This document shows positions 20,137-64,000 of a stretch of DNA of 64,000 nucleotides, piece by piece. Where the stretch lies: assembly GCA_001687465.1 (NCBI GenBank), contig LVLI01000150.1, forward strand, positions 1 through 64,000, written 5' to 3'. Below the pieces are notes generated by a model, which saw only the letters and a program-made list of their open reading frames with translations, did not search any database and had not been told where the DNA came from. This DNA is from Halocafeteria seosinensis (lineage: Eukaryota). A program made the translations under genes and the position numbers. The stretch's first letter is position 1; the number at the start of each line of letters is the position of its first letter.

Positions 20137-20604
20137 CTCGGAGCATTCTACATGTATGAATGGTGAACTGCAAATGCTACGAAAATGTTGCTCTAACGCT
20201 CAGCTATAACTGATTGACATGCTTGGAAGCGTTTCGACTGAAAAACTGACTCCAAGCAGTTACTGTAGGAACTGAAGGCTTGCCCTCAAAACGGTGCGGC
20301 TGGAGGAGACAAGCCCACATAAAACCACTGAATTATGCCCTCTATTTAAGTGGACGATGATGATGAATTAATCTGAGCTCTTTCCTTCAGGTGATGCAGA
20401 AACTACGGAACAGCTAATTTGCTTGTCTCTACAAACGGAACAGTGGGTCTCTTGAAGAAGATGATTTAAGGAAAACACAAGAGAATACGTGAAAAACTAT
20501 AGGCGAACGATGCTATCGGCCTGGTACAAGTTGGTCTCAGACACGGCGTACAGCTGGAACCAATTGCTACGACACAGCCCCAGGGTGGCAACTGGTAATC
20601 CAAA

Positions 20605-46400: not shown

Positions 46401-48413
46401 CCATGGGTACCGCCGCGAAGGAAAGTGGCTATGATTGAAGACATGCCTTTCATGTTTAATCGGGTCGTAGACCTCAACTGTGCGCTTTGTCCATGCGAAT
46501 GACTCACTGAACCAGAATGCTAGATCACGATCATTTGCCAACGAGCCACCCAACTCTATAAGCAATGCACAATAGACATTAGACTCAAGGGAGGGTGAAT
46601 TAAGTGTTCCCCGCATATGCGTGCCGTCCATAATGGATGTGTTTTTACAAACATCTGGTAGCCGCAGGAAACTCAATCCAAACCCGTGGAACGATCCATG
46701 GTAGCCAGGATCCCAGAAGAACGCTTCTACTTTAATTATGCCATCCCGTAAAACCAGAGGGTTGTCGTCAGTAGGGGCATCAGCGTACTGGTAGTTAGTG
46801 TTGGATGGAACATGAGATATTGTCACATCCCCACTTGACCGAAGAAACCACAGCAGTATAGGCGCATGAGTAGTATTCGTTAGTGTCCAGCTGCAGCTGA
46901 AGTCTGTGGGAGCGTCTAAATCATTGATAACCCCCGGACCAATAGATCCTTCAAGCGTGTTAACTTGCGTATTTCCCAAACATGGAAGTGAGTGAACTCC
47001 TAGCTCCCAACCACTGTCTTGAAGACCGGAGGAGGCATTGAAAGTTACAAATAGCGTTGTTCCGAGTAAGTTCCACGCCTCGGAAGTATCCACAGTCTCT
47101 GAAAACCGATACGATTGTTGAGTAGAGTCATCTGTCCATATTTGGACGACGTCTTGTGGGGAGGCTGTTTTAAACTTGTTAAACGACACCGAAAAAGCTT
47201 TACCTCTAGAAGAAAGTCGGATTTCCCATGTGCAATGGCTTCTTGGAATGTAGTTGAGCTTTTCACTTCCATCACTGATAGTGAGGGTTCTATCCAGGTT
47301 CAGAACTTGCCTGGGCAAACAGAAAGAGGATAGAGCTGAGGAAGGCCTGTACGTTAACCGAAAGCCTATAGAAGTGGTCGTATGATCAAAGTCACTGGAA
47401 AATTGGAATTCAGCAGGAGTCGGTAATGTCCAGGGAGACTCTACGGGGAATGGATTGACGTTTCCAGTAAGGGCATGACTTTGTTGAGGAGTTGATACCT
47501 CTAGGTAGTCGCCATCTCCCAAAGAAAAGTATTCAAACCATAAGGTTATGTTTGGATGTCCAGGATAATCTACTTCCCAAGTCTTGAATTCTCCCCGATC
47601 ATAATGATGGTCCCTCTCACTTCCATCTGTAACACTAATTCCTGAAACTGATTCGATTTCCCAAAGAACAGCGTAGTTCAGCCAAAACCCGTCCTTCGTC
47701 CCTTCAACAGTAAAGCGCAAGTTAACCGGGGATTCTACCAAAAGTGGTGCCTCAGGAGGAATAGGATTAGTCGAGTCTGTTAGGTCAATGGAGGAAGATG
47801 GAGTTGATATTTGAATATCACTGCCGAAGTGTCCGAAATAGAAGAAGGAGAAAAACAACTTGATCGGTGGGTTACCTTGAAAGCTTAGTTCTCTTGTTTG
47901 TTCGACCCCTTGCTGGAAATTATCGAAAGCTCGACCCTGATACACTGAACCAATGTCCATGTTGCCCATAACGACACTGTTCAATGCTGTATAACTTAAT
48001 TTGAACCCCCCTTTGGTTACCGAGAAATCAGTTGTGAAACGGATCAGAAGGGGTGATTTCATAATCAGGGAAGCATTTTTAGGATGGGGATTCACTTCTC
48101 CAGAAAGCTGCTTTCGGTCATCCCAGCCGGTTATCTCCAAGAAATCGTACCCTTCCTCGACCTCAAAGTAGTTGAACCACAGCTCGACTCGCATAGTGGT
48201 GTTAAAGTTGAGAGCTCAAATCTCGTCAATCTCGTTAGAGTACGATTCTTCTTCTCCGCTTCCATCCGTAATTGATCCTTCGAGCGGTGAAGTCGTGGCA
48301 AGCTCCCCCACACCGGTGGAAGCAGCGGCGGTGGAAAGAACAGCCAATGAGATCATCGTCGCAACAGCAATGAAGGATGCATGCCGCCACAGATTGACCC
48401 TCTTTCCCTCCAT
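31411..48413 (-). pseudogene. Giant (~5,660-codon) type-I membrane protein gene with two reading-frame lesions
   Basis: Signal-like hydrophobic N-terminus; ~8-9 CUB domains; DGIDNDCDGYIDE motifs; HYR-like RTW...CG repeats; CARDB repeats (PDL.V...E..E.NN); lipase-like domain; PFDPND/YRIRFEN/GFLPPN domain; EGF-like; DGSE repeats; GPS-like CHFTLFA; TM helix. In-frame TGA at 48218-48216 and frameshift near 43990. Confidence 0.8.
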
Positions 48414-49869
48414 TTTCAATCGTGGATGATGCGCTGTTGATACCATGACCTGTACGGCTTTCTTTGTCTTTTTCTATAAAAAGCACGCGCACAATGTCTG
48501 CTGGTGTTCTTGTCGTTGGGTCTTCCGGACAAGATCCGCTTGCCTGTATTCAAAGCTTGTTTTACGTCGTTCAACGAACGATAAACGTTGCCGAGAAAAA
48601 GAAGAGAACAAAAAAGAACTTCTTCCAGTTTAGGCCTTGCCAAGCCACTGAACTTGGTAGCTACTATGAAGATCGAAGTTGGTTGTGATTAACGGCTAGA
48701 TAGTACCAAGTGGGTGACACGCCTGCCAGCCTGTCGCTAAGTCCAATTGCCCCCGCACACTTCAAGAAAACGACAAAATCGCAGATCAATAAAAGGAGAC
48801 ACGTGAATATTGCAGTAGTTGTTTTGAAGGGTATTCTGTGAGTGCCAATGCTAATTATTCATGAGATACTTGAAAAAACCCTCTCTGTGGATCTTTGTGC
48901 CAGTGTCCATCGCCGCGTACCGAGAACAGCTGCTCATAGGTAGAGGAGTCAGCTCATTTACAGTACCGGTAGGACGAGCTCATTTGATCACACATATAAA
49001 AAGTGCAAGAAGAATGTGTATCCTAAAGGCAAACGAATGAAACTATTCGTTTTGGTGGTACCCAAGCACGGATGAGGTCTCGATGCCGTACCCATACTCC
49101 AAGATGTAGGACTCCTCGCAGAAGTTCTCGCCCTGCTGTATGGGCACACACCCTACGCACAAAGGGCTTCGCTTTCGTTTTTACCCGAAAAGCCCTCTTG
49201 ATGTTGTGTAGACCATCTTCCGAAATTAGTGAGCGTCTTCATCAAGCACTTTGCCGACGTCCCCACAAGTGCATATGCAATGCGTAGCGGGGCTATGGGA
49301 ATAAGAACCATACAATTTGATGGCGTCGGAGTAGTGCAAAGTAATTAGAAGCTATGTACAATGGTTCTTACCTTTCGAAGAAAAGGACGTGTTCCGAGAC
49401 ATGTAAAGCGACTTTTTTTTTAGCAACTCAAGAGTTCTCTCGTGTTCCAAGTGTGCCCGAAACTTCTCACTCGCGTTGCCCTACTTCTGGTACGTGTATG
49501 CCGCTACTTGCTCCTATGCTGCTGGATGCAGTAATGTTGCTGAACCTGTTGCCCCGGTCAAGAGCTCCCGCTTATTGGAACACCAACGTTGCTACGCAAG
49601 TACCGCGGTCCCGCAGTGGGATGCGACCGAAGATACAACCACACAAACCCGAAAACTAGGAAGCAACCTATTTCGATATTCAGACACTGTACTTCCCGAA
49701 AAGTCTGTCAGAGAACACTCTCTTCCTTCATGTTATGTTTTCATTGCTCCCCCATTACAGTGCTTGAGTAGTACTGTACTTGTACTGTACTTCGTTCTTG
49801 GCACTGAACAATTGGCACTATTGCATATGACGGCATACACCGTCATTTTTTTATTTCGTTGGACCGAGT

Positions 49870-50693
49870 AAAATAAACTCGGACCCATGTCAAACGAAGG
49901 CAGGAGAAGAAAAGGGTATTCCCAAGGAGTACGGATAAATTGCTCTTCGTCGATATTCATTCCGCTACCACTGCAAGCATGGTGCAAATGCGTCGCAGAA
50001 AAATTGAATTCCTTAGTCATCAATAATATCCACGCTAAGATGCGCTCGTAATTCTTGCCGTTTCCATCGGTGTTAAAGTTAGAAACGGAATTTTGTTGGC
50101 TCCATTGACTGACCAATAGTTTTATGCCATCTTCAATTGAGACGCTGCGGTTTCCTTTGGCGACTGCATTGGCGCAAACACTATCCCATCTTCTCTTGGT
50201 TCCATCTTGACGAGACCTTTCTGAACTAATTGGACTAAGCTATTATCTGGAGGAAGACAGAAGATACATTCACCTACCTTGTAGGCAATGTATAAGATTT
50301 TTGCCATGCCAAGGGAGAGGTATCATTGCTTAATGGGTAACTCCATCCTTTAAGTTGCACGAACCGGTCTCGCATATCCCCATATGCTCTTCTATACTGT
50401 TGACGCATGATTGCCTTGGACCACACAACAAAATCCTTACTACCCTCCTGCAGTATCAGGCCCGAAAGCATATTATGGATCAAGTATTCCAAAACTAGCG
50501 GACGACGAAGCATTGGTAAGTACCATTGAACTTCTTCATCCGCAAAAAATGTGTCACCGAGAAGTAAATACTTCCGCAATATGGATATTAAATGATCGAT
50601 CTCGAAGGAATGCAGAGAGACGAACTTGGTAAGTTCGCTATGATCCACATGAGATGTGCCCGACAGTAGCCATGGAAAGTGTTTATGCGTCAA
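49870..50693 (-). pseudogene. Decayed host gene (possibly Crinkler-type NTPase/REase-like) cut by the mobile element
   Basis: Three consecutive ORF pieces in shifting frames (50711-50274, 50307-50122, 50116-) with WLLSGTS, RRPLVLE and GKNYERILAW; the 5' end abuts the left TIR. Confidence 0.45.
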
Positions 50694-51134
50694 ACCAGAG
50701 TGAAACCTCACCCTGCCTCATCCGACCGCATAACCCGACGATATACCCCCTACAACGTCACCTATCTGTTTCACCAAAATACCGCTATACGACCGCATAT
50801 TCCGACGGATGAATCACGCAAAATACGCAAAGGGATTCCTCACCCCACCGAACCCGACCGCATAACCCGACGATATACCCCCTACAACGTCACCTATCTG
50901 TTTCACCAAAATACCGCTATACGACCGCAAAATCCGACGGATGAATCACTCAAAATACGCAAAGGGATTCCTCACCCCACCGAACCCGACCGCATAACCC
51001 GACGATGTACCAACTATACAGCACCTAAGCCAAACCACAAGTTGACCCCTACACGACCGTGTCTCACGGGGGTTCGACAAACGAAATAGCCATGCCTACG
51101 TTTCAAGCGACGGCGTCAAGTTGACTTGTGAAGT
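50694..51134 (+). repeat. Left terminal inverted repeat (441 bp, includes a 132-bp tandem duplication)
   Basis: CCGACCGCATAACCCGACGAT recurs at 50722, 50854 and 50986 (period 132); aligns without gaps to the reverse complement of 61811-62119 once one unit is removed (441-132=309). Confidence 0.93.
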
Positions 51135-51178
51135 GGTGTGTCAAGTTGACTTGGGCGAGTTCAAATTGCCCAGTCCAG

Positions 51179-51186
51179 AAAAATGA
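51179..51186 (+). promoter_or_regulatory. AAAAATGA motif, candidate giant-virus-type early promoter (representative of 7 gene-proximal copies)
   Basis: 28 nt before ATG 51215; context CCAGTCCARAAAAATGATTRAACC..TTAAA is repeated before ATG 51815. Confidence 0.65.
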
Positions 51187-51214
51187 TTGAACCGGTTAAA
51201 GTATAACCATAACG

Positions 51215-51706
51215 ATGCCGTTTAAAAACGAGGATGTCACTCAATTGGCAAAGCAACAACGTGAAATTATTCTGTTCAAGAATCTAGAATATGCGTTGAA
51301 CGAACGGTTAAAAGATGAATGCCGTGAAATGGTTCGCAATACAATGGATTCAGATAATGAAGAAGAGGATGTTGATGTAAAAATACCAACACCAAAACAG
51401 TCTTGGCTATATCGCAAACGGTTCAAAATAAAATCAATCAAGATTTACAAAGGATCTGATCCTCCATTCATAAGTGATATTCAATTGGGCAAAGAGAGCA
51501 AAAAAGGATTGGTTGATATAAAATTAACGGATGATGATTGGGCACTGTATTATGAGCATTACGAAGACGAGACAATGACAGAAAATAAATTAGAAGACTT
51601 TTGTCAGTCAAGAATAGATTTATGTGATATTCATGATCAATACAGGAAAAAGACAATTGTTTGGAAGATATCATATCTTATGAAGCAAATATTCATGAAA
51701 GGGTGA
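51215..51706 (+). CDS. Element hypothetical protein (163 aa)
   Basis: Clean ORF preceded by the AAAAATGA motif; no recognised domain. Confidence 0.75.
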   Translation: MPFKNEDVTQLAKQQREIILFKNLEYALNERLKDECREMVRNTMDSDNEEEDVDVKIPTPKQSWLYRKRFKIKSIKIYKGSDPPFISDIQLGKESKKGLVDIKLTDDDWALYYEHYEDETMTENKLEDFCQSRIDLCDIHDQYRKKTIVWKISYLMKQIFMKG

Positions 51707-51814
51707 CAGTTTGTTGGATTGTTAATCATTTTCATTTTTTGACTTTGTGCAATACCCAAAGCGAACCAGTCCAAAAAAATGATTAAACCACTTAAATAAT
51801 AAACCAAAAGCAAA

Positions 51815-52510
51815 ATGGATACCAAATATTTAAGTCTAAACACGGAATATTGGGTTCGCTGCCCATATATTGAGACACCCATCATGGTGTCCAATTTTGG
51901 CCGATGTTGGAGCATTTGTAACCAAAAATACATGAAAATTAAGTCACAATCCACCCAAACAAATTTTTATGGGTTTCAAGTGAGAGCACCGACCGATAGA
52001 AATCTTGGCATACCAAACGCCAGAAAAACTACACGCTTTTTATCCCCTGAGAAATTAATGGCAATTGCGTTTTACAATACCAATTTGCCAACAATGTTTC
52101 GACCCAAGAAAATGGATCAAACAAAAATAACACATTTATGTAACATTCGTTTTACTAAATCGTCGCTTGAACCGGAGGGATTTGATGTGGAACGAAACGT
52201 ACGCCTGACTGCTTTGTTACCCCATATTGACGAGGCAAATACCCCCGAACAACAACAATTGCATCATTTGAATGCAACTAGACCACAACCGGAAACAGAG
52301 TCCGACACCAAGACGGACGATGCCCAATCAGTGGCTTCCACTGTTCCGCAACAAATGGAAACAAGCGAGAAAGAGAGTGTGGCAAGTCAAGCCAATGATA
52401 GTTCCAAACAATTAAATGTCAAATTCGGATCAGTGGAAATAAGTAAAACGATGAAGTCGCAAGAGGAGTACGATAAAATAAAAAACGAATTGCTCAAGTT
52501 TCTTGTGTAA
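51815..52510 (+). CDS. NUMOD4-like protein with degenerate HNH region
   Basis: EYWVRCPYIETPIMVSNFGRCWS fits NUMOD4; EKLMAIAF...HLCNIR fits a decayed HNH_3 lacking the catalytic DH. Confidence 0.6.
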   Translation: MDTKYLSLNTEYWVRCPYIETPIMVSNFGRCWSICNQKYMKIKSQSTQTNFYGFQVRAPTDRNLGIPNARKTTRFLSPEKLMAIAFYNTNLPTMFRPKKMDQTKITHLCNIRFTKSSLEPEGFDVERNVRLTALLPHIDEANTPEQQQLHHLNATRPQPETESDTKTDDAQSVASTVPQQMETSEKESVASQANDSSKQLNVKFGSVEISKTMKSQEEYDKIKNELLKFLV

Positions 52511-52562
52511 AACAATACATTGACTTTGAATCCGCTTAGAGCCAACTCTTTTGTTATGGTAT

Positions 52563-52958
52563 ATGCCGAAAAAGAAGGGAGAGCAAGTTTCCGAGTACCT
52601 TAAAGTGTCACACAAAGATTTCTGTGATATCGCCAAACATAGCAACGCCGAACAGTTAGTGGATATTATTAACGACCATTATACAAACGAAAACCACAAC
52701 GACTTTGCGGAAGAGTGTATTCAACGCCTTGATGTAGCCATTGTCGAGGTGGAAAAACGCTGTATTGGCGAATATCTATCGGATACAGGACATACCATAG
52801 CGTCCAAAGCAGAGGAACTTGCTAACAGCCTATCCTTTGACTTGGACGTTAATGATCGTGCCCAGAAGCGGTTTGAAAAACTCATTAAATCTATGACCGC
52901 AAAAGAAGGCTCTAAAGGGGGTGGTTCTAGTAAAAAGAAAAATGAACAGACGCAATAA
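52563..52958 (+). CDS. Element hypothetical protein (helical, basic C-terminal tail)
   Basis: Clean ORF from GGTATATG. Confidence 0.7.
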   Translation: MPKKKGEQVSEYLKVSHKDFCDIAKHSNAEQLVDIINDHYTNENHNDFAEECIQRLDVAIVEVEKRCIGEYLSDTGHTIASKAEELANSLSFDLDVNDRAQKRFEKLIKSMTAKEGSKGGGSSKKKNEQTQ

Positions 52959-53016
52959 GAGCCAATCATGTCAGAAATAAAATTGACCTAGAATCAATTT
53001 TAAAGACTTTGTTATA

Positions 53017-53268
53017 ATGGATAAGTCAGGAGTTGAATTTTTCAGACAAGCAAAGGCTCTATGCTGTTCCTGCCGTCAGGCGAAACCACTGAGCGATGTC
53101 ATTGAATCCATCGTTCGAGCAAGTCATTTAAAAGAGGACTGGTATGTTTTTGTTTGCCGAGCCTGTTACACCCATGCGACAACAATAAACCCTTTTGTTC
53201 ATGTCAGTAAATCCGCTGACGGCAGACCAATTTTTAGACTCATGAAAGAGGTTGAACAAAGCAAATAG
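53017..53268 (+). CDS. Small Zn-ribbon protein
   Basis: CCSC...CRAC pairs; exact AAAATTGA at 52979-52986 upstream. Confidence 0.7.
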   Translation: MDKSGVEFFRQAKALCCSCRQAKPLSDVIESIVRASHLKEDWYVFVCRACYTHATTINPFVHVSKSADGRPIFRLMKEVEQSK

Positions 53269-53293
53269 AGACAATTTATAGACATATGGTATA

Positions 53294-53665
53294 ATGGCAT
53301 CTGAACGACAAGAGATGAGGGAATGGGATACTCAAAGTCCTTTGGCAGGGAATATTATTTATCTAAACGATGATTTACGTGAAAAGGTTAGAAACTATCA
53401 AGCATCAGCACATTACCAAGTTAGGGAACTTCAACAACAGCGTGTTCCAAACCACTGCAAAATCCTTACTTTCATTGTCAATGATGACAACAATATTCAT
53501 ATGGATTCATTCGCTTTACTGGCGTGTGATTCCTATGAAGAACTTGCTGACAATACTTTGTGCGAAACGGTGGATGGTCAGTACGTTCGACCCGTTCAAT
53601 TTAATTTTGATCCAAATTCCCGAACCCCTTGGTTCGATCTCATTAACTACCTAGGTATTGAATAG
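53294..53665 (+). CDS. Element hypothetical protein (123 aa)
   Basis: Clean ORF from GGTATAATG, followed directly by a hairpin. Confidence 0.7.
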   Translation: MASERQEMREWDTQSPLAGNIIYLNDDLREKVRNYQASAHYQVRELQQQRVPNHCKILTFIVNDDNNIHMDSFALLACDSYEELADNTLCETVDGQYVRPVQFNFDPNSRTPWFDLINYLGIE

Positions 53666-53667
53666 GA

Positions 53668-53692
53668 ATAAAGTCACAACATGTGACTTTAT
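53668..53692. terminator. Perfect 11-bp hairpin between convergent genes
   Basis: ATAAAGTCACA-ACA-TGTGACTTTAT, 2 nt after stop 53665 and 5 nt from the opposite-strand stop at 53698. Confidence 0.6.
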
Positions 53693-53697
53693 CATCA

Positions 53698-53787
53698 CTA
53701 CTTTGGTTGAAGGATTTTTCCAACCATCTGACCTGCGTCTATTAACTTCCCAACAGTTTTGGCTTGACGTTCTCGTTTGCCCAACAT
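53698..53787 (-). CDS. Possible 29-aa basic/amphipathic peptide
   Basis: MLGKRERQAKTVGKLIDAGQMVGKILQPK fills the gap between the penton stop and the hairpin. Confidence 0.4.
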   Translation of the reverse strand: MLGKRERQAKTVGKLIDAGQMVGKILQPK

Positions 53788-53812
53788 ATCTGTATATTAT
53801 ACCGTTGAATTC

Positions 53813-54547
53813 TTACAGGATTTCCATCAACAACTCTAAATAGATATTTGACCCGTTCAGATTCATGTCTCTGTAATTGTCGTCCAATAATTCAATGTCA
53901 AACTCACTCAGACTAGCATCCACGGGGTGAAAGACGATAGAATTCCTTTCAGGACTGTAAATCAAAAAATCGCCAAATGAAACCGAATTGGGGATACTAA
54001 CCAAGGCCGATGGGGTTATCTCTTCATTCGGACTAATGACTTTGCGGGAATCCACAATGCTTTTGCTAGAAATATTATAGACCAGCGTTGAAGCAATCCG
54101 TGGCAATCCAGTAAGCGTCTTAGTGGTAGCGTCGGCAATCGGATCAAAATCAGCAGAAGCAATCAACCCCACCCGTTCGTTTGCTTTGTCCGGTAGATCA
54201 TTGCCATCAATATCGGTGTCTGTCTTTAAAAACCTAATTTGACTGCCTGTGGCGTTATCCACAATGATCCGTTGGCTATCGCTATCCACATCAAATGTCA
54301 AACCACTAAACCCAGCATTGTCCGCCAGATCCGTTAGATGATCCGCAAATCCCTGTAGATCCTGAAACAATGTCTTAGTGGAAATGGACAAACTAGTCGC
54401 CGTCGTAGCGGAAGCCGAATCATAGAAATACAGTTTGTTGTTTTTATCATTGAACGGATAAGCAGTATTTGGAATAATCGCTTTGGCCACACCAATTTGA
54501 GCTTTTTGCCGATGACCACCGACAGCATCATCCAATTTGAATATCAT
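53813..54547 (-). CDS. Minor capsid (penton)-like single jelly-roll protein, probably 5'-truncated
   Basis: IGVAKAIIPNTAYPFNDKNNKLYF and LVSIPNSVSFGDFLIYSP...SLSEFDIELLDDNYRDMNLNGSNIYLELLMEIL match the recalled PLV/virophage penton pattern (IP...G..I.Y.P...I.I.L.D......LNG). Confidence 0.75.
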   Translation of the reverse strand: MIFKLDDAVGGHRQKAQIGVAKAIIPNTAYPFNDKNNKLYFYDSASATTATSLSISTKTLFQDLQGFADHLTDLADNAGFSGLTFDVDSDSQRIIVDNATGSQIRFLKTDTDIDGNDLPDKANERVGLIASADFDPIADATTKTLTGLPRIASTLVYNISSKSIVDSRKVISPNEEITPSALVSIPNSVSFGDFLIYSPERNSIVFHPVDASLSEFDIELLDDNYRDMNLNGSNIYLELLMEIL

Positions 54548-54839
54548 CCCCCAATATATTTGCTCCATCGCTAAATACAAATTGGGCACTGTCATGATTG
54601 ACAATTTGCGTCTCTACATAGGTGGCTGGCGGGTCTAACAAGGCCGAATGGTTCTGCAATTTGACCGATATTTCGTTATCACCTGACGGTGTATATCCGC
54701 TGATTCCACCTGTTGGTTTGAGTGTAATCTGTTCACGACTTTGGAGATTGTCAAGCAACTTAAAATTGGATGGGTTGAGCCTCGAATCTAAGTGAAGCAC
54801 GTCATTCTGCTCAGCAATAGGACGTTGTTCTTGTGACAT
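54528..54839 (-). pseudogene. 5' stub (103 aa) of a PLV-type double jelly-roll major capsid protein
   Basis: SREQITLKPTGGISGYTPSGDNEISVKLQNHSALLDPPATYVETQIVN...GANILGDDIQI fits the recalled N-terminal strands of PLV MCPs; it stops where it runs into penton sequence. Confidence 0.62.
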
Positions 54840-55470
54840 ATAATCTGTTGTTTAAAGTTGTTGTTAGTTCCTGAATGACGGCATCATAATCAAGTTTTTC
54901 TTTGGTGATACCACGTTCAGTTTCTATTTCATGATGGTCATACAGACGATCTCTTTTACAAACGGCGTCATAGAAATGGGTGAAATAGCCGAAATGTTTA
55001 TTTTTGTTATTGAACATTATATCTACCCTCCATTTTCTAGATTTTCTTTCCCAATTAACACCAGTCGCACCGGACGTATTGTCAGTTCGTTTGTTTCTAT
55101 TTTTCTCCTGTTCGTATCGTGTTAAAACCCTAAGATTGGTCAATTGGTTGTTATCATAATTACGATCGTCATGGTCAGCAGTCCAGTCATAAAGATAACT
55201 ATCTCGGTAGTTATAGTCATAAAAGGAAGATATCATAAGCCGTGAAAGCATATAACGATTGTCTTTTCCGTTTGTGCACAAACTAACCCTGTGGTATCCT
55301 TGTTTGTTAAAGTTGTGTTTCAAAAATGTCGGCTTATTACCAAATTTCGGTTTCTTCTTTTTCTGACTCAGCACCCGCCCTTGATCCGAAATCCAATATC
55401 CATCAATATACTCCTCAGAATTCATTCGTACCGGCGTCCAGTTTTCCACGTTTTCATGGTTTTCCAACAT
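54811..55470 (-). CDS. NUMOD4-HNH-AP2 homing-type endonuclease
   Basis: ENW...GYWISDQGRVLS; GYHRVSL...SRLM; ADHDDRNYDNNQLTNLR; NTSGATGVNW...KWRVDI...HFGYF. AAAAATGA 24 nt before ATG 55470; 3' end overlaps the MCP start by 29 nt. Confidence 0.88.
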   Translation of the reverse strand: MLENHENVENWTPVRMNSEEYIDGYWISDQGRVLSQKKKKPKFGNKPTFLKHNFNKQGYHRVSLCTNGKDNRYMLSRLMISSFYDYNYRDSYLYDWTADHDDRNYDNNQLTNLRVLTRYEQEKNRNKRTDNTSGATGVNWERKSRKWRVDIMFNNKNKHFGYFTHFYDAVCKRDRLYDHHEIETERGITKEKLDYDAVIQELTTTLNNRLYVTRTTSYC

Positions 55471-55515
55471 GTGATTACGACCCCACATGTTCAATCATTT
55501 TTGTGCTTTAGCCAA

Positions 55516-56343
55516 TCATCCCAACTTAAAGAATTGACGTGGATTCGCACCTTTAGGTTTTTCGGGAACGGTTTGCTTTGCCTCTTTGGCTCGTTGTTTC
55601 ATGGATTCCTTTGGTTTTGCCTTCGTATTCGTTTTTACTTTAAATCCCAACCGCTCTATTTGGTTGCTTCCTCGTCTGTTGATAATCGGTTGTTGCGACT
55701 TTGGTTGTTCCGGCTGTGGCTGCAACATTTCCGGTGGAAGCATATCAGCGTATGGAATGGGATATTCCGGTTCATAATAAGAAGGCTGTGCATCGGGTTT
55801 TAGTTTTGGCTCTTGAACTTGTTGAACCGGTTGTTGCTGTTCTCCTGAATCATCAAATTGAACTTGTTTGCGGGGTTTTTGTTCGGGTTCTGGCTGTGGT
55901 TGTGGTTGTGATTGCTCTGCCTGACTTTTTCCCTTTTTCTGTTCCTCTGCCTTTTTTCGCTTCGCTTCAATCATTCTTGCCACAGCCTTCTTTTTCTTTT
56001 CCGACATTGGCTTCTTTTGCTTAAACAATCCATTATCAATCGGTTTGTCAAATTGTTTGGGTTCGGTTGGTTCAGCAGTTGGCTGTGTTGGTGGCTGTTG
56101 TACCGGTTGGCTTTGTACCGACTGTGTTGGCTGACTTTCTATCTGACTGTCTTTGCTTTGACTTTTAGATTGCCGAATCAGACTGTTCAATTCTTTTAGC
56201 GACATGACCACCGATTTATCGTTAGATGGTTTGGATTGGGGTGGATTTTTGACTTGTTGGGCTTCCGGTTCTTCGTTGTTCGTTTCGACCTCTTGGTATT
56301 GTTCTAAATATTTACTTAACTCGTCCAAATCTATTTCACTCAT
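55516..56343 (-). CDS. Low-complexity Q/P/K/E-rich protein with a basic helix
   Basis: 275-aa ORF containing KKPMSEKKKKAVARMIEAKRKKAEE. Confidence 0.75.
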   Translation of the reverse strand: MSEIDLDELSKYLEQYQEVETNNEEPEAQQVKNPPQSKPSNDKSVVMSLKELNSLIRQSKSQSKDSQIESQPTQSVQSQPVQQPPTQPTAEPTEPKQFDKPIDNGLFKQKKPMSEKKKKAVARMIEAKRKKAEEQKKGKSQAEQSQPQPQPEPEQKPRKQVQFDDSGEQQQPVQQVQEPKLKPDAQPSYYEPEYPIPYADMLPPEMLQPQPEQPKSQQPIINRRGSNQIERLGFKVKTNTKAKPKESMKQRAKEAKQTVPEKPKGANPRQFFKLG

Positions 56344-56368
56344 CGTATATGTTGTCGTAAAATGTTGA

Positions 56369-56393
56369 TACGTCTATCGTATCCATAGACGTA
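56369..56393 (-). terminator. 9-bp hairpin 3' of the lipase gene
   Basis: TACGTCTAT-7 nt-ATAGACGTA, 9 nt beyond the stop at 56403. Confidence 0.55.
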
Positions 56394-56402
56394 ACGTTTC
56401 CA

Positions 56403-57140
56403 TTACTGTTCCAAGATGTCTAAGAAGGTACCCATAGTATGATTTGCCACCAAATTGTCACTGTTCAATGGCAATGTTTTTGTTTTGAAACGGGAGAAAG
56501 CGTTGCCAAGTGATACCGGATCCAATCGCCGACGCCATATGACTGTTTTGTTTCGCAATTCTGAATCGGTGAAAGACTGTCCAATGTTGGCAAGATTGAT
56601 AGCGGGATTGATGAGATGGAGTCGGTCAATCTGGCGAATCTCTTTACCGGCCATTAATGCACTGAAACCTCCAAGGCTATGCCCTATGACATTAATCCGA
56701 TTTGGGTTGGTTTCCCGAATTGCACGTTTCAAAACAGGCATGTCTTTTTTAACCCTGCTGTTTTGATTGGTATGGCTAATCAACTCTAAATCCGATCCGA
56801 CATCTTGAACATTGCTTGTGCCACGGATGGCCAACCACAACACACCATCTTGAAGGTACGTAGCCACATTGTCACTTGATAAATTTTGAAGATATTGATA
56901 CCCGAAGACTGTGGCTCGGCGTTCTGATTTGGGTCGGTACGATTGGTTCTGCATAACAAATCCAACTTTCTCCGATTGCGTTAGTTCGGGGACTTCATCT
57001 TGTCCTGTGGCTCGTTCAAACGTTTGAATGGATTTCTTACCGATTGCTCCAAGCGTTTGCATTTCATTTGTGTTTTTGATCCCGTTCAACAAAGTCTTGC
57101 CGGTTTCTTTTACCAATTTGCCCAGAAATTTCTTACTCAT
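56403..57140 (-). CDS. Class-3 lipase / alpha-beta hydrolase with amphipathic N-terminus
   Basis: LAIRGT...DVGSDL, GHSLGG nucleophile elbow, DPVS and C-terminal H complete the triad. Confidence 0.9.
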   Translation of the reverse strand: MSKKFLGKLVKETGKTLLNGIKNTNEMQTLGAIGKKSIQTFERATGQDEVPELTQSEKVGFVMQNQSYRPKSERRATVFGYQYLQNLSSDNVATYLQDGVLWLAIRGTSNVQDVGSDLELISHTNQNSRVKKDMPVLKRAIRETNPNRINVIGHSLGGFSALMAGKEIRQIDRLHLINPAINLANIGQSFTDSELRNKTVIWRRRLDPVSLGNAFSRFKTKTLPLNSDNLVANHTMGTFLDILEQ

Positions 57141-57152
57141 ATAGTTTATGGG

Positions 57153-57398
57153 TTATTCCTCGGATACTTCCGCCTTCTCTTCGTCGGCATCCTCGGTTTG
57201 CGATCCCTGATCCTTTTTTTCTTCGGGAGCAACCGGTTGGCTATTCCGGTGGGTTTTAATATTCATTGTTCCTTCCTTGCAGTTACAGTTAGACGCCATG
57301 TCATCGGTGCGACTAAACAACTTGTAGAGAGCGGGTGCGATAGAAATAGATCCGACACTTCCAACTATAATCACAGCAATTGTCCAAGGTTCGAGCAT
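57153..57398 (-). CDS. Small membrane protein
   Basis: GGTATATG start; MLEPWTIAVIIVGSVGSISIAPALYKLF hydrophobic segment, CNC motif, acidic tail. Confidence 0.65.
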   Translation of the reverse strand: MLEPWTIAVIIVGSVGSISIAPALYKLFSRTDDMASNCNCKEGTMNIKTHRNSQPVAPEEKKDQGSQTEDADEEKAEVSEE

Positions 57399-57421
57399 AT
57401 ACCAAAGTGAAAGAATTTTCT

Positions 57422-57811
57422 TCAGAGTTGATCGGCCATCCATCTGGCTTGACTGTCATAATGTTTCATGGCAATTATTTGTTTGTCCGGATAGCGAACA
57501 TACGCAATTTTTATCATATTATCTGGAATACAAGCCCAAATGGTTTGTAACGAGTCTAATCCATATTCCCGAACCGCCCACTTGATATCTGCATCCGTTT
57601 TCAACATGTCCATACTCATATCACCATTTTCAGATTCATGTAACAGGAAATGGCGGTAATGATCAAATAATTCACTCTTTTTGTCCGCATCAGCAATAAA
57701 AACATGTTTAAGTGCTCTATAGAGGTGAATGAGTATGTATTTTGTTTTTCCGTCTTTATCCAAATGGAAAAAATGGGACGATTCTATTTTATCACAGGGA
57801 ATGGATGTCAT
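57422..57811 (-). CDS. Element hypothetical protein (129 aa)
   Basis: Clean ORF; AAAAATGA at 57841-57834 upstream. Confidence 0.7.
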   Translation of the reverse strand: MTSIPCDKIESSHFFHLDKDGKTKYILIHLYRALKHVFIADADKKSELFDHYRHFLLHESENGDMSMDMLKTDADIKWAVREYGLDSLQTIWACIPDNMIKIAYVRYPDKQIIAMKHYDSQARWMADQL

Positions 57812-58000
57812 GGTGGTTATGTCAAAGTGTTCATCATTTTTGTGGGATGGGTCAAATGATTAGCATGTGCAACAATTGATTGACAATAAGAGAGAGAAAT
57901 AATAGAACTTGAATCCGTTCATTTACCTCTTTGGGTAATTGTACTATCACGCCAAACAGTACAAAAAGACCAAACATGTTACACGTTGAACATAAATCAA

Positions 58001-58405
58001 TCATTTTTTGTGGGGTGGATGATTCCAATCATAAAGAAAATCATATTGATTCACGTCTCCCAAGACATGAGAATGTGTCTCGTCAATGTCAAATTGTGTC
58101 GTTCGTATTCCGGCTCTATTTCGTGTAATGAACAATGGCAATCTTGGACTTAATAACTTAATCCGAGCACCATTTCCGTCCAAGGTTGTTTCAAAGGCAT
58201 TGCCATCTAAACGAATTGGATTATCCACAATATATTGCCTTTGGTCAAACCGAAGTGTCATGCCCATATTGGGAATTAAATGATTGACTGCGCCTTGTAT
58301 TTGTGTTGTATCGTCTGTTCCATTAAAGTCTCTGACATATAAAACACTGCGTGGCTCACTCTGTGCTCTGGATCGTCCAAACAGTTGGCCGATAAATGAC
58401 AACAT
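58001..58405 (-). CDS. Pectate-lyase-3-like beta-helix N-terminal fragment (fibre/spike-like), likely truncated
   Basis: LYVRDFNGTDDTTQIQGAVN...TLRF...Y.V..PI.L...LDGNGARIK is the usual beta-helix cap; 134 aa is too short for a full domain. Confidence 0.6.
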   Translation of the reverse strand: MLSFIGQLFGRSRAQSEPRSVLYVRDFNGTDDTTQIQGAVNHLIPNMGMTLRFDQRQYIVDNPIRLDGNAFETTLDGNGARIKLLSPRLPLFITRNRAGIRTTQFDIDETHSHVLGDVNQYDFLYDWNHPPHKK

Positions 58406-58445
58406 CTCTATACTCCAATAATAGAGAATCTGTTTTAACCGGTTT

Positions 58446-58709
58446 TTATCGTCGGTTATTTTTACATTTCTTGGACAAACGGTGAGTGTAAATACTGGAT
58501 TTGCTCACCAGTGTGCCACACAACTTACAAGGGACTTGGTTCTTTTGGATTTCTTCGGCATATCGGCATTTGAACGTTTTGATGTGGTCATGCATACTTT
58601 TACGTTTGAGTGTTGCTCCACAACGGTCACAATTGACTATTTCTTCGCCCGACTCGCCTGAAGTGATAATACTGTTCTTGTAAAAAATGTTCCCACTTTG
58701 ATCGGACAT
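58446..58709 (-). CDS. Double C2HC/C2H2-type zinc-finger protein
   Basis: CDRCG...HIKTFKC and CKLCG...HRLSKKC; AAAAATGA at 58737-58730. Confidence 0.8.
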   Translation of the reverse strand: MSDQSGNIFYKNSIITSGESGEEIVNCDRCGATLKRKSMHDHIKTFKCRYAEEIQKNQVPCKLCGTLVSKSSIYTHRLSKKCKNNRR

Positions 58710-58747
58710 AGCGGTTTGTCAAAGTCCATTCATTTTTTGTGGCTCAG

Positions 58748-59158
58748 TTAAAATTTGGGTTTAATGAATTTGTTGCGTTTGATCCGAAACGTCTTTAATT
58801 TCCGTGCGTTGTGGATTTCCGAACAACCCAATACCATTCCAGTCCGAATGTACGGAAGTTCATTGCGTTCCAATTTTATGATTTGGGCATGAATTTTTCC
58901 AAGGACAATAGTGACAAGACATACATAAATGGGATCATCTATTGCTTTTTCAGCCAATCTATCTAGCGATGGATGATTTATGGTATAGGTGCTCTCGTCC
59001 AATGATTTGTACATAAAGACATCCGTCTCGCAGGGGGGAAAATACAGTACTTCAAAACAGGTATGGCTGTCCAGTAGTTTTTGTTCGGTGTTCGCCACCA
59101 GCCAATGCACGGCATCATATAATACTTGATCTTGTTGATAACTGTTTAAAAAATCCAT
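58748..59158 (-). CDS. Element hypothetical protein (136 aa)
   Basis: Start taken at MDFLNSY because the longer ORF call overlaps the tRNA. Confidence 0.65.
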   Translation of the reverse strand: MDFLNSYQQDQVLYDAVHWLVANTEQKLLDSHTCFEVLYFPPCETDVFMYKSLDESTYTINHPSLDRLAEKAIDDPIYVCLVTIVLGKIHAQIIKLERNELPYIRTGMVLGCSEIHNARKLKTFRIKRNKFIKPKF

Positions 59159-59208
59159 CCTTTCTCTATACCAATGATATAAAGAAATGGTTCTAAGTAA
59201 CAAAGTCA

Positions 59209-59281
59209 CGATTCCACAGAGATTCGAACTCTGATCCTTCAGATTAACAGTCTGACGCTCTACCAATTGAGCCATGGAATC
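59209..59281 (-). tRNA. tRNA-Asn(GTT), intronless, no encoded CCA
   Basis: GATTCCA-TG-GCTC AATTGGTA GAGC-G-TCAGA CTGTTAA TCTGA-AGGAT-CAGAG TTCGAAT CTCTG-TGGAATC-G; all four stems pair perfectly; 73 nt. Confidence 0.96.
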
Positions 59282-59301
59282 AGTGGGAATAGATCGTTTG
59301 C

Positions 59302-59769
59302 CTATTCATCGTCATCCACAAGATATATACTATCCTCATCGGAATCGCTAATTTCATCTGGACTGGGGTAAGAAGATAGTTCATTGAAGGATAACTCATT
59401 AAAGAGATACTGTAGTTTCTTACACAACCAGCCATTCTTCTCCACTTCACTCTCTTCAAGTTTTTGTTTTAGCCATTTCAGATAGTCGGGGGCTTTCTGC
59501 ATGACCTTCCGCATAGACTTGCCCTCGTACAACCCGAAAGGCAACCTTTGATCGGCCTTGCCAAAAATCATTTGCAGTTCTTTCATAAAGAGGGTTGAAC
59601 CAAACTCTTCTTCTTTATTTTCCGTCAGTAATTTCCACACATAAGCGGGTTTGGTCTTACAGATGTGGCCAATCGTTTCGCCCTTGTACTGGCCGAAGTT
59701 GAATGTATGGTTGAAGATATCCTGATCCGTGGTTTTGCTTTGACTCTTTTGTTGTGGCTGGTTGGACAT
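59302..59769 (-). CDS. Protein with two ExoX-C-terminal/DUF3820-like motifs and an acidic tail
   Basis: FNFGQYKGETI...PAYVWKL and LPFGLYEGKSM...PDYLKWL; AAAAATGA at 59799-59792. Confidence 0.75.
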   Translation of the reverse strand: MSNQPQQKSQSKTTDQDIFNHTFNFGQYKGETIGHICKTKPAYVWKLLTENKEEEFGSTLFMKELQMIFGKADQRLPFGLYEGKSMRKVMQKAPDYLKWLKQKLEESEVEKNGWLCKKLQYLFNELSFNELSSYPSPDEISDSDEDSIYLVDDDE

Positions 59770-59857
59770 GATTACCTATAACCACCTCCATTCATTTTTT
59801 TCTATTCGGTTTTTTGCGAAAACATTGTCTTAAAATAATTCGTTCTAGATAGTCATA

Positions 59858-60679
59858 ATGACCACCACCGTACCAACCGTACCCGATTGTCGTCAATTGA
59901 AACGGTATAGTGACATTCAATTGCTGTATCTAAGTCAAATTTATATACACGAACGTTTCCTAAACAGAAAGAAACTCATCCGATGGTTAAAAATGACCTA
60001 TTATATCTACAAACACCGTAGCCATTTGTTCTATTTGTCTTATGGTATTTATGAACTCGCTCTGATCACCGGATTTTACTATGGATCAACTGAGATCATG
60101 CAATATGCGTATAACGTATGTCCTCCAAGATGTTCCCCGCTCGATTGTTTTGATTGTCGGGAAAATTGCACACATTTCTTATCCAAATGTATTAGCGACC
60201 TGCCGACCATTCAACTCAGTTCAGACCAATTTCTACATGCTCTACATTTTTTAGAGGATTATTCTCCTTTTTCCCTTGATTTCTATATCACAATATTCAG
60301 TCGAACCGGCTCATCCCCTGATGTCATTCCATCCAATCTAACCTTTTACTACATGATCTTTTTGGCTCATTTAAAGTACTATGATCTGGCTGTTGTTGTC
60401 CGATTTTATGAACTGTATCCTGACATCCGGAACATGTTGCGGAAACAACCGATGTGGCAGGGGGCACAGTCCCATCAAATACCTAGAGGATGTATAATCA
60501 ATGACAAATATTTAAAAATTGACTATACACAATTGAAACAGGGACAATTTGATTGTGTGGTTTGCTGGGAATCAGAGTATCCTCGGCGAGAGGTATGTTC
60601 CAACAATGAGGAACATTGTGTCTGTGATCAGTGTTTGGATCAAATAGTACAATTGTATTGTCCTCTCTGTAATCAATAG
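59858..60679 (+). CDS. RING-finger (C3HC4) protein with a hydrophobic segment, putative E3 ligase
   Basis: C-terminal CVVC...C...HCVCDQC...CPLC; hydrophobic LFYLSYGIYELALITGFYY. Confidence 0.8.
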   Translation: MTTTVPTVPDCRQLKRYSDIQLLYLSQIYIHERFLNRKKLIRWLKMTYYIYKHRSHLFYLSYGIYELALITGFYYGSTEIMQYAYNVCPPRCSPLDCFDCRENCTHFLSKCISDLPTIQLSSDQFLHALHFLEDYSPFSLDFYITIFSRTGSSPDVIPSNLTFYYMIFLAHLKYYDLAVVVRFYELYPDIRNMLRKQPMWQGAQSHQIPRGCIINDKYLKIDYTQLKQGQFDCVVCWESEYPRREVCSNNEEHCVCDQCLDQIVQLYCPLCNQ

Positions 60680-60681
60680 AG

Positions 60682-60993
60682 TTAAGTCGTGGCGGGAATC
60701 AAAAATGCTTCTATTTTACTATGCACCGTTTTACTTGAGCCGAGATTACCGTTGTCATTTATTTCAGTGATAAAGTCAATATTTTGTGTGGTGTTGGTTA
60801 AAATGGTAAAAGAATAATACATAGTCAAATCATTCTCTGATCCAATAATATGGGTGGTCGGGTTTATTCTTGAGGCATCGCTGTTGTTGTTAAATGATTC
60901 CGCTACAGGGGCAAAAACATCTCCAACATCATCTGTTGCTTTATGAATGACAAATATATTACCGCCGGTATTCACATAATCCGACCAAACCAA
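60682..60993 (-). pseudogene. 5'-truncated beta-rich ORF fragment
   Basis: 103 open codons with no ATG start, abutting the 174-bp repeats; composition compatible with a fibre-head domain (inference). Confidence 0.45.
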
Positions 60994-61029
60994 TAGAATT
61001 CAATTCCCTGTTCTCTGTGCAAACCATCT

Positions 61030-61463
61030 TCAACCACCTGTATCCACTCAAATGAATCACTTCCCCTTATCTTGTGCGTTCACGTATTCACTTTGCTTCA
61101 GTGATTTATATGATGATTCGACATATAACCAACCCTGTTTATAAGTAAACCAAACTTGGGGCAAGGTTCACTTCGGGCTCAGGAAGATCCTTCAGTTCAC
61201 ACGACCACCCTCTATAAACACTCAAATAATTCACTTCCCCTTATCTCACCCATTTACGCATTACCTTCGCTTCAGTGATTTATATGATGATTCAATACAT
61301 AACCAGCCCTGTTCATGGATAGAGGAAACTTGGGGCAAGGTTCACGACGGTATCAGAAAGATCCTCCAGTTCAAACGACTACCCCTATGCACCCAAATAA
61401 ATCAATCTTTTCCGTTATGCTAAGCCAAAATATAATCACTGTGCTTCAGTGATTATCATGATT
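61030..61463. repeat. 174-bp degenerate tandem repeat (~2.5 units), non-coding
   Basis: GCTTCAGTGAT at 61095, 61269 and 61443; CACTTCCCCTTATCT at 61058 and 61232; AAACTTGGGGCAAGGTTCAC twice. Confidence 0.88.
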
Positions 61464-61810
61464 CCTTGGGATCTTATCATAGACTTCGCAAATAGGACGG
61501 GGACGACTGCCAAAGAAAAGAACTTAGCCGGACAACAGGTTGGCATTCAGGGGACTGTGAAGGGAAACAAAAACACCTCCATCAGGACATGTTCTCCGGT
61601 CTATACACACCTTTTTCAATCCAAACAAAAATAGAAAACCACAACATCTGAATCAGAAACATTCACTTATAAACTCTGTTGTCTTTCTTTCAGTACAATC
61701 GCTGAATGAAATCAGTAGAACGTAGCCAAGCAAATACGTAGTGACTCGTACTTTTCAAATCAGACGAACTCAACTAATCTAGCCAGTACGATTGAAGTTA
61801 TACCGTCGGA

Positions 61811-62119
61811 ACTTCACAAGTCAACTTGACACCGTCGCTAGGCACGTAGGCATGGCTATTTCGTTTGTCGAACCCCCGTGAGACACGGTCGTGTAGGGGT
61901 CAATTTGTGGAATTCGGGTGAGGTTCTCTAGTGGGTATATCGTCGGGTTTGGCGGTCGGGTTCGGTTGAGTGAGGAATCACTTTGCGTATTTCGTCTGAC
62001 TATTTCGTCGGATTTTGCGGTCGTATAGCGGTATTTTGGTGAAACAGATAGGTGACGTTGTAGGGGGTATATCGTCGGGTTTTGCGGTCGGGTGAATCCG
62101 ATTGGTTCTTCCATCTGGT
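61811..62119 (-). repeat. Right terminal inverted repeat (309 bp)
   Basis: Reverse complement aligns gap-free to the left TIR from ACCAGA to GTCAAGTTGACTTGTGAAGT. Confidence 0.93.
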
Positions 62120-62152
62120 GTTATATAGGAATCTACTCTATTGACTACTCTC

Positions 62153-62351: not shown

Positions 62352-62492
62352 GTGTTCCCTCACGGCGCATGTCAGCAAGGCTGCAGGAACAGCGGACCCG
62401 TCGCTGCTTAACACGGGCGCATACCGCTCCTCGTTAAGAGGATGCGGTCAACTTCCCGGCCGGTGGGCTATCTGTCACATTTGTGTGTGTGC
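62352..62492 (+). repeat. Dispersed SINE/LINE-like 3' end, copy 2
   Basis: Matches 3457-3584 apart from a short indel; ends in (TG)n. Confidence 0.75.
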
Positions 62493-63335: not shown

Positions 63336-64000
63336 ATGACAACCCAAAACCGCGGAGGAGGAGAACGAGAAGGGCACCGAGGATACCGTCAGCATACACT
63401 TGTAGGACATGTATTTGAGGTTCGGAATAGGTATACGGACCTTGAACCGTTTGGCCGGGGAGCATATGGGCTGGTGGCCAAAGCTCAAGATCTCGTGAGT
63501 AATTGCTCGAGCTAATTGACGCACCCAATGGTGCACACGGAACACTCTTTTCATGGATTGCAGATTACCGGGAGAAACGTTGCCATCAAGAAGATCGAAA
63601 ATATATTTCGGGACAATATCGACGGTAAGGGTTTCGCATGCAGGATACCGTAAGGCTTTGAATGAATTGCTGCTCTGTGTCCGCAGCTAAACGAACTCTA
63701 CGAGAGGTGAAGCTACTACGACATTTGGGGGCACATGGAAATGTAACTGAACTCATCGACATTATGACAGAGCCTCCGGAGTCGCAGAACTTCCGGACGT
63801 TGTATATTGTTACTCAGTGCTACGAGACTGACCTAGAACGGATCATCAATTCGGGGCAGCGACTTTCGGAGCGACATTTCTCATATTTCGTGTATCAGTT
63901 GCTCAGGGCACTGAAGTATATCCATTCGGCTAACGTGCTTCATAGGGACTTGAAGCCGTCGAACTTACTTGTCAACTCTAACTGTGACTTGGCCATTTGC
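63336..64000 (+). CDS. MAP kinase (ERK-like), 5' part (exons 63336-63494, 63564-63624, 63687-end)
   Basis: [81 protein letters not shown]; canonical GT-AG introns keep frame. Confidence 0.95.

Follow-up and report, generated by a model that had tools for sequence, protein, structure and literature searches.

The question raised by this locus is what kind of viral element is resident in it and how much of its parent that element has kept. The window, namely the whole stretch of DNA that was analysed, comprises the first 64,000 nucleotides of contig LVLI01000150.1 (assembly GCA_001687465.1) from Halocafeteria seosinensis, and the first-pass annotation had described its interval 50694-62119 as an integrated, internally deleted Polinton-like virus (PLV) or virophage. 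The results presented here make it quite probable that the element is a defective, likely integrated copy of a PLV family with relatives in the same sample, which has kept a penton gene and accessory genes and has no intact gene for a major capsid protein (MCP), ATPase, replicase or integrase. Because no intact genes for the major capsid, packaging, replication and integration were found, the element would be unable to make particles or to move alone.

Four sequencing runs of one study cover the window. None of them is recorded as RNA. X1 was taken as DNA, as it reads through the host introns, and X2-X4, all from one sample, were taken as RNA solely because both host GT-AG introns are skipped in them. 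The proposal that the element is AT-richer than the host was confirmed by a 1-kb profile and by the totals, with a guanine-cytosine content of 40.6% in the element and 47.5% in the remaining window. Inverted repeats are present at both ends, with arms that are 85-95% complementary, so that the description as an element bounded by terminal inverted repeats (TIRs) holds, but its ends are probably 50665 and 62149 in place of 50694 and 62119, which gives a length of 11,485 bp. The ends were set there because AGTAG is read inward at both, 57 nt (left) and 58 nt (right) outside the first 132-bp repeat unit, and because the exact match of an X1 contig to the left flank stops at 50664. AGTAG occurs in the host at 0.87 per kb of strand. 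Termini with 5'-AG are a feature of Maverick/Polinton transposons, and such termini are present here, in the AGTAG of both ends. The parts of the element that bear most directly on its nature are the following.

50665-51134, plus strand: left TIR, with the AGTAG end, a 57-nt outer segment, 2.3 copies of the 132-bp unit and a 100-bp inner segment
53813-54595, minus strand: penton, a single jelly-roll minor capsid protein, with residues 1-19 non-homologous to the family; found in RNA contigs identical to the window copy
54528-54839, minus strand: 103-aa open reading frame (ORF) overlapping the penton start
61811-62149, minus strand: right TIR, with a 100-bp inner segment, 1.3 copies of the 132-bp unit, a 58-nt outer segment and the AGTAG end

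In the left TIR the 132-bp unit consists of two halves of 65-67 bp. Units of the left end agree with each other at 129 of 132 positions and units of opposite ends at 119-121 of 132; for the inner segments the figure is 95 of 100, and for the outer 57 nt, in an ungapped comparison, 21 of 57. The left and right TIRs have diverged and are not a matched pair. The identity of TIRs is taken as a sign of recent movement in PLVs (PMC12220804). Because the TIRs are mismatched in unit number and outer ends, the earlier suggestion that the element is recent or mobilised in trans is doubtful. Two copies of an 11-bp near-palindrome, possibly a binding site or an origin, lie where the left TIR meets the interior (51116-51153), and one lies at the right (61817-61832). 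When a TIR motif was used as a probe, two loci were returned, neither with a protein match, and they were judged to be chance.

The viral identity of the element is carried mainly by ORF 54595-53813, which, according to its structural model, encodes a single jelly-roll penton. HMMER, run against 1.84 billion proteins, returned 43 hits, of which one was the query and 42 were relatives; the closest relative of full length is 41% identical. This points to a divergent PLV lineage as the source of the element and agrees with the larger, probably uncharacterised viral family that had been proposed. The model was made from an alignment of 33 relatives, nine others (fragments, partial matches and longer proteins matching in two stretches) being excluded, and reached a predicted local distance difference test (pLDDT) score of 89.8. 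In Foldseek against the PDB the top match was the mavirus penton (E 8.9e-9; template-modelling (TM) score 0.50), followed by the pentons of Sputnik (E 4.7e-5) and adenovirus. Against a viral structure library the best match was a protein of Tetraselmis viridis virus S1, which we take to be a PLV (E 7e-12, TM 0.76), with minor capsid proteins below it. VIA-align matched the model to chain 8h2i_bG of PBCV-1 (Z 16.5, root-mean-square deviation 3.1 over 238 residues), and the alignment profile found the same chain, named P1v1, at E 0.017. As regards a penton of virophage type, the fold is common with the mavirus and Sputnik pentons at 8-12% identity, and closer shapes lie outside the virophages. 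The exact 260-aa protein is present in the protein collection. A word-based protein search matched only the penton itself, the names of the relatives gave nothing beyond "hypothetical protein" among 20 clusters looked up, and relative P0045 had no match in the metagenome collection. The penton subfamily, with its 42 relatives, marks a PLV lineage that was not found by IMG/VR scans with the window proteins.

The internal deletion postulated earlier could be located at the capsid locus. In leave-one-out profiles, 32 of the 33 relatives align from position 10 or before and the last from 11, and the window protein aligns only from 27, which is its residue 20; the N-terminal motif of 28 of the 33 relatives is missing from it. 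The first residues of the penton are the other reading frame of the end of the upstream 103-aa ORF, and therefore a deletion junction is placed near 54540. Judged from sequence, the first 19 residues of the penton are foreign to its family. An RNA contig that agrees fully with the window sequence spans this junction (54170-54610, depth 5.5).

The MCP is a different matter. No intact double jelly-roll gene was found in the element, whose longest ORF has 275 aa compared with 422-493 aa for the presumed MCPs of related loci. The comparison loci are 15 IMG/VR loci obtained from 94 stretches through an alignment of four distant pentons; they (L003-L017) measure 7.5-19 kb and contain mostly a presumed MCP, of two types, an A32-type ATPase and helicase-like genes. 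A 422-493-aa gene lies near the penton in 13 of the 15, and 13 of the 15 have a gene of the ATPase cluster. Among the 321 ORFs of these loci, the two best matches of the 103-aa ORF are N-termini of presumed MCPs, in the expected register (E 0.13 and 0.39), and against a profile of four MCP N-termini, picked after that result, it ranked second among itself and 1,000 shuffles and fifth of 1,289 window frames. On the grounds of position and register, the 103-aa ORF is likely what the deletion near 54540 left of the N-terminus of a major capsid gene, with a homology that is not significant. Several results speak against the stub. Against the full presumed-MCP profile the ORF ranked 25 of 1001, its hhalign probability was 0.4%, with 15-17 of 100 shuffles scoring equally high, the comparison MCPs were labelled by size and position alone and have no Pfam or PDB hit, and in the comparison loci the penton comes before the large gene, opposite to the order in the window. 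Moreover, the ORF had no Atlas or PDB match and, in the word-based search, none among longer proteins. Therefore, of the two ORFs once proposed for a jelly-roll check, the penton gave a clear match and the 103-aa ORF no significant one, and of the typical PLV and virophage genes listed earlier the penton, lipase, HNH and zinc-finger genes stand, but the double jelly-roll MCP does not, 103 aa being far too short.

The absence of the remaining hallmark genes was upheld. None of 126 six-frame fragments of at least 42 aa matched the A32, protease, PolB, helicase or integrase families; as a positive control, the ATPase of one PLV locus matched Pox_A32 at E 2e-12. A hidden Markov model (HMM) of the A32-type ATPase derived from the PLV loci had no match in the element, and among all the profiles built from these loci only the lipase matched, the HMM from five loci finding the hydrolase at 56403-57140 with E 1.8e-7. 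Neither a replicase (pPolB, primase-helicase) nor an integrase (rve, tyrosine recombinase) was found, and no ORF is of replicase length. Searched for in the element, the virophage set of maturation protease, MCP and ATPase gave nothing, nor did the pPolB and rve integrase of Mavericks/Polintons. The element is a defective PLV derivative, and full membership of the PLVs fails for want of the MCP and the ATPase. No locus was confirmed when IMG/VR was scanned with the penton, the lipase, the 103-aa ORF, the ExoX protein or either of two small alignments of pentons; the lipase had no match in the word-based protein search, and a search of a phage collection gave no match.

In all, 19 closely spaced ORFs or ORF remnants of at most 275 aa cover 89% of 51154-61000. 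The layout of about 20 packed intronless ORFs with a tRNA was thus described correctly for the 19 ORFs, which have no introns, and for the tRNA-Asn, but a GT-AG intron is present beside the right TIR. Most of the ORFs and the tRNA are intact, as had been stated, with the exception of the replaced penton start and of the frame at 60682-60999, which has no ATG. The other genes are as follows.

51215-51706, plus strand: 163-aa ORF, no family; motif AAAAATGA[AT] about 35 nt upstream
51815-52510, plus strand: 231-aa ORF, no family; upstream motif; diverged sister copies in DNA and RNA contigs
52563-53665, plus strand: three short ORFs (131, 83 and 123 aa), no family; hairpin after the last
54811-55488, minus strand: NUMOD4-HNH homing-type endonuclease (Pfam, PHROGs); missing from one sister copy
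55516-56343, minus strand: protein of 275 aa, rich in Q/K/P; with bias correction switched off, and only then, weakly similar to small K/E-rich proteins from PLV loci
56403-57140, minus strand: alpha/beta-hydrolase (lipase), related to PLV-locus lipases (Pfam; HMM)
57153-59158, minus strand: six short ORFs (96, 129, 50 and 134 aa, an 87-aa zinc finger, 136 aa)
59208-59282, minus strand: tRNA-Asn(GTT); Rfam 75.8 bits
59302-59769, minus strand: 155-aa protein with two ExoX-like_C domains (Pfam E 6e-12)
59858-60679, plus strand: 273-aa ORF with a C-terminal RING-like Cys/His pattern (pattern only; no Pfam hit)
60682-60999, minus strand: 105-codon frame without ATG

The last frame is likely what remains of the 3' part of a gene that was cut by a second deletion, with its junction near 60993-61000; at 60993 an RNA contig (X4 contig 27) ceases to follow the window. 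No credible sequence match was found in the PDB for the 103-, 105- and 134-aa ORFs, a match to UL31 at E 0.03 being distrusted. The tRNA-Asn fits the codon bias weakly (Asn 5.9% compared with 4.0%, AAC not preferred), and none of the 15 IMG/VR loci has a tRNA. Apparent hairpins lie just 3' of stop codons at 53666-53700, 56370-56395 and 51704-51735, which resembles the hairpin rule of termination in mimiviruses. The tRNA had been counted as unusual cargo, a view that is not retained, as tRNAs are already known in PLVs (PMC12220804).

The DNA run shows that the element has company. One sister copy in X1 is without the HNH gene (joint 54842->55513), another without the 58009-59304 block that includes the tRNA (joint 58008->59305), and many X1 contigs are 85-95% alike to the element sequence; related copies of its PLV family are present in the same DNA run. 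X1 contigs identical to the window were found at 53299-54092 (depth 62.9), 54948-55507 (87.9) and 56550-57162 (41.1), with 113-134 in the flanks; this half-flank depth hints at one hemizygous copy, contig depth not being a copy number. The flanking genes are eukaryotic, namely Rab1 and a MAPK-like gene with GT-AG introns of 69 and 62 nt, and the close spacing of the genes would suit a microbial eukaryote. Integration at this exact site is likely. It falls short of proof because no listed contig bridges a host junction and because 164 letters of the X1 contig that ends its match at 50664 have no placement; of the junction check proposed earlier, the occurrence of the element and both flanks in one DNA run is what could be confirmed.

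The history of the element can be sketched conditionally. A PLV-type parent with AG-ended TIRs would have entered the host and spread to several sites. One deletion would then have fused the first ~100 codons of the capsid-like gene, out of frame, to about codon 20 of the penton, and a second, inferred near 61000, would have removed the genes behind the right-hand module. The route may have been recombination between two young sister elements or, alternatively, the decay of a single copy. Recombination of sisters is preferred because it explains the intact ORFs together with the unlike TIR ends and, if the element is a deleted PLV copy as favoured here, it is the most likely route, with roughly an even chance of being the right one.

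Several observations weigh against the account of a deleted, integrated copy. Neither host junction is bridged and the end contig carries its 164 unplaced letters. At some places, for example 61263 and 57653, every X1 contig differs from the window, and therefore consensus errors are possible in the window. Tetranucleotide composition shifts only mildly, with r of 0.41-0.58 for element windows and 0.46-0.81 for host windows. No target-site duplication (TSD) is present at 50665/62149, and among about 1,900 offset pairs one 5-mer was found, at unpaired ends, which equals the chance expectation. PLVs of the recombinase type leave no TSD, and since a missing TSD is normal for tyrosine-recombinase PLVs (PMC12220804), its absence is no proof of recombination between sisters. 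Some of these points would be expected if the assembly were a chimera, with left and right halves from different copies of the family and this 11.5-kb element not in the cell. A multi-copy family, unlike TIR ends, the missing bridging contigs and the places where all X1 contigs differ fit such an origin, and artefacts of this kind have been reported for endogenous viral elements of protists (PMC10120064; PMC8547959). Nevertheless, an RNA contig of identical sequence spans the junction at the capsid locus, and identical DNA contigs lie along the element at similar depth (the three given above and about 62 for the window letters at 61317, 61352 and 61374), so that a chimera is considered quite unlikely.

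The element could also belong to a naturally reduced and still mobile satellite lineage, copied and packaged in trans by full-length relatives. Transpovirons and the EMALE (endogenous mavirus-like element) type 8, which is without morphogenesis genes, are analogues, and truncated EMALEs flanked by TIRs exist (PMC8547959). Such a lineage would fit the intact state of most ORFs, of the promoter motifs and of the tRNA, the transcription of the penton from the window copy, and the strand that the penton model still has at residues 5-9. A satellite is hard to reconcile with outer TIR ends identical at 21 of 57 positions and unequal unit numbers, with the foreign penton start and the headless frame at 60682-60999, and, as a hint, with window-identical contigs whose depth, roughly half that of the flanks, suits a single copy; it is regarded as very unlikely.

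The protein genes of the element appear to carry a viral type of regulation. The motif AAAAATGA[AT] occurs nine times in the element and not at all in 52.5 kb of host sequence, against a mean of 1.5 and a maximum of 7 in 200 shuffles, and it precedes six to seven genes, mostly 14-37 nt before the start codon. It differs by one letter from AAAATTGA, the early promoter of Mimiviridae, which is common to PLV PgVV-14T and its helper (bioRxiv 10.1101/2022.07.28.501842). By analogy with this promoter, the PLV parent was likely dependent on a giant helper virus. The family thus has two apparent regulatory layers: many protein genes are preceded by giant-virus-like motifs, and a transcript from inside the right TIR is spliced by the host. 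The features that bear on this transcript are the following.

61006-61810, minus strand: transcribed module adjoining the right TIR, with an exon at ~61779-61611, an intron and a short exon from 61037
61038-61610, minus strand: GT-AG intron of 573 nt with ~2.4 copies of a 174-nt repeat; joint in X2, X3 and X4, not in X1
63336-64000, plus strand: host MAPK-like gene, with introns 63495-63563 and 63625-63686 skipped in X2-X4; internal control that tells RNA runs from DNA runs

In all of X2-X4, and not in X1, there is a joint at which 573 nt bounded by CT..AC have been taken out, equal to a minus-strand GT..AG intron 61610->61038. The contigs with this joint have depths of 2316, 1640 and 4954, compared with 100.5, 66.3 and 118.2 for the MAPK intron joints, that is 23-42 times as much; this hints at an abundant spliced RNA, although contig depth cannot rank genes. 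A caution applies to all such figures, as a single sample from one study gave all the RNA runs and expression is poorly reflected by contig depth. At 61317, 61352 and 61374 the RNA has only the other letter, and at 61423 the letter of the RNA was found in one DNA contig (depth 55). Since the RNA carries non-window letters, it comes from a sister copy. That copy would transcribe the segment inside the right TIR, and host-type splicing would remove the 573-nt repeat-filled intron. RNA contigs run into TIR sequence, with variants at 51096-51102 and depth at 61910-61980 in X2-X4. The intron sequence itself is deep in RNA (summed depth 1964-6585 at 61263), and in X4 there is a back-joint, 61779->61006 at a depth of 2296, whose landing point is an acceptor-like TAG; either back-splicing or a tandem unit could account for it. 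Over 55476-59747 the RNA runs gave no contigs, which is not evidence of silence. The transcript of the module is likely driven by the host and belongs to the latency phase.

As to what this RNA is, coding capacity in the window copy is low. The longest ATG frame of 61900-60994 has 19 codons spliced and 36 unspliced, and Rfam gave no match in the module up to E 5. The intron does not fold unusually (z 0.29) and the repeats fold no better than shuffles. A protein-coding role of the 174-nt repeats was rejected, their 36 differences being spread 13/13/10 over codon positions with stops in all frames; so was a role as hairpin precursors or snoRNAs, with no Rfam family and no unusual fold, and one as guides against the window, with no match above 14 nt outside the TIR palindrome. 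The repeat core had no match in the metagenome collection. Separately, RNA contigs of X2 and X4 (depth ~300) join 28 nt like 52730-52757, in ORF 52563-52958, to the 174-nt repeat at 61193, possibly by chance or as a variable insert in the repeat of a sister copy; the window module has no such match.

Three explanations of the transcript have to be weighed. It may be the 5' untranslated region (5'UTR) of a protein-coding gene that is strongly expressed in a sister copy and has lost its coding part in the window copy. The second exon has an ATG at 61027, after its first 10 nt, and beyond 60993 X4 contig 27 runs on for 114 non-window letters; therefore the expressed copy may continue into a gene deleted in the window. 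A single PLV gene expressed in culture is cited for TsV-N1 (PMC12220804), and intron-bearing latency genes have been reported for the giant endogenous punuivirus (bioRxiv 10.64898/2026.10.09.758095). The deep intron RNA and the back-joint 61779->61006 are not expected of a plain UTR intron, and this explanation is given somewhat less than an even chance. Alternatively, the module could be a host non-coding locus or tandem array captured by the virus, the RNA coming from host copies outside the elements. The letters of another copy in the RNA, a back-joint that could equal a 774-bp tandem unit and splicing of host type would all fit, but the RNA contigs extend into the TIR and the DNA depth of the unique part of the module (~270-370) hints at a likeness to the element genes (230-380) and not to a large array, which makes such a capture unlikely. 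The remaining explanation is that the PLV family encodes a latency-associated non-coding RNA, with a promoter in the TIR, an abundant transcript, a stable intron of 174-nt repeats and a back-spliced circle; it is put forward tentatively and as rather doubtful. In a search of largely open-access articles, no paper was found that describes a non-coding RNA of this kind, spliced or circular, for PLVs or virophages; the non-coding RNA tables of PMC12220804 may bear on this point. The Rfam-based survey of PLVs in that paper lists matches to tRNA, rRNA, miRNA, group I introns, histone stem-loops, snRNA and snoRNA.

Several further observations concern the host flanks. A short repeat of very high copy number lies at 62352-62492, 200 bp to the right of the element, and at 3457-3584 and 18589-18648; its X1 bin depth is ~80,000 and it is deep in the RNA runs too. 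A 460-aa frame at 18817-20199 (minus strand) adjoins one copy of this repeat and is possibly another mobile element. In the left flank two minus-strand frames without family hits lie at 49733-50239 and 50274-50717, the second of which reaches into the TIR and may thus have been interrupted by the insertion; low-depth RNA contigs cover 48693-50649. The very long minus-strand frames at 31411-43989 and 43821-48215 (4192 and 1464 aa) appear to resemble secreted or surface proteins with repeated domains.

Endogenous PLVs are widespread (Bellas et al. 2023, PMC10120064) and number thousands in protist genomes. With these, including the cryptophyte PLVs (PMC12220804), the element has in common a TIR-bounded insertion of low GC, several copies per genome, an occasional tRNA, and penton, lipase, HNH and zinc-finger genes. 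It differs in its size of 11.5 kb, compared with 14-40 kb, in having no MCP, A32 ATPase, replicase or integrase, in its mismatched TIRs of 132-bp tandem units and in a spliceosomal intron within a TIR-proximal transcript. Among the EMALEs of Cafeteria burkhardae, three of 33 are truncated, TIR-flanked copies that occur beside full-length relatives in a size range of 5.5-21.5 kb, and there too promoter motifs are taken as a link to helper giant viruses (PMC8547959). Unlike them, the present element has a penton model nearer in shape to a protein of Tetraselmis viridis virus S1 than to the mavirus penton, no protease or MCP of mavirus type and no TSD. PgVV-14T, or Gezel-14T, also has a penton, a lipase, homing endonucleases and a AAAATTGA-like early motif before a subset of genes (bioRxiv 10.1101/2022.07.28.501842), whereas here the motif is AAAAATGA[AT], the core module is incomplete and no helper virus is known.

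A deleted provirus is by itself ordinary, given that PLVs are abundant in protist genomes and truncated copies have already been described. The valuable part is the spliced transcript, as it bears on what integrated PLVs do without a giant virus. The latency-associated transcript (LAT) of herpesviruses is a stable intron. With LAT and with the punuivirus genes (bioRxiv 10.64898/2026.10.09.758095) the element has in common that a virus resident in the cell gives rise to a transcript with GT-AG splicing of host type; it differs as a small PLV, neither a giant virus nor a herpesvirus, for which no sequence relationship is claimed and whose RNA has a putative stability and function. Summarizing, with a defined RNA, mapped splice sites and an identifiable copy, the question of what integrated PLVs do becomes testable. 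If the latency reading is true, this RNA would be a small-virus counterpart of the herpesvirus LAT and would act in latency, in superinfection exclusion or in defence against the helper giant virus, and the protein genes would meanwhile await the early promoter machinery of the helper.

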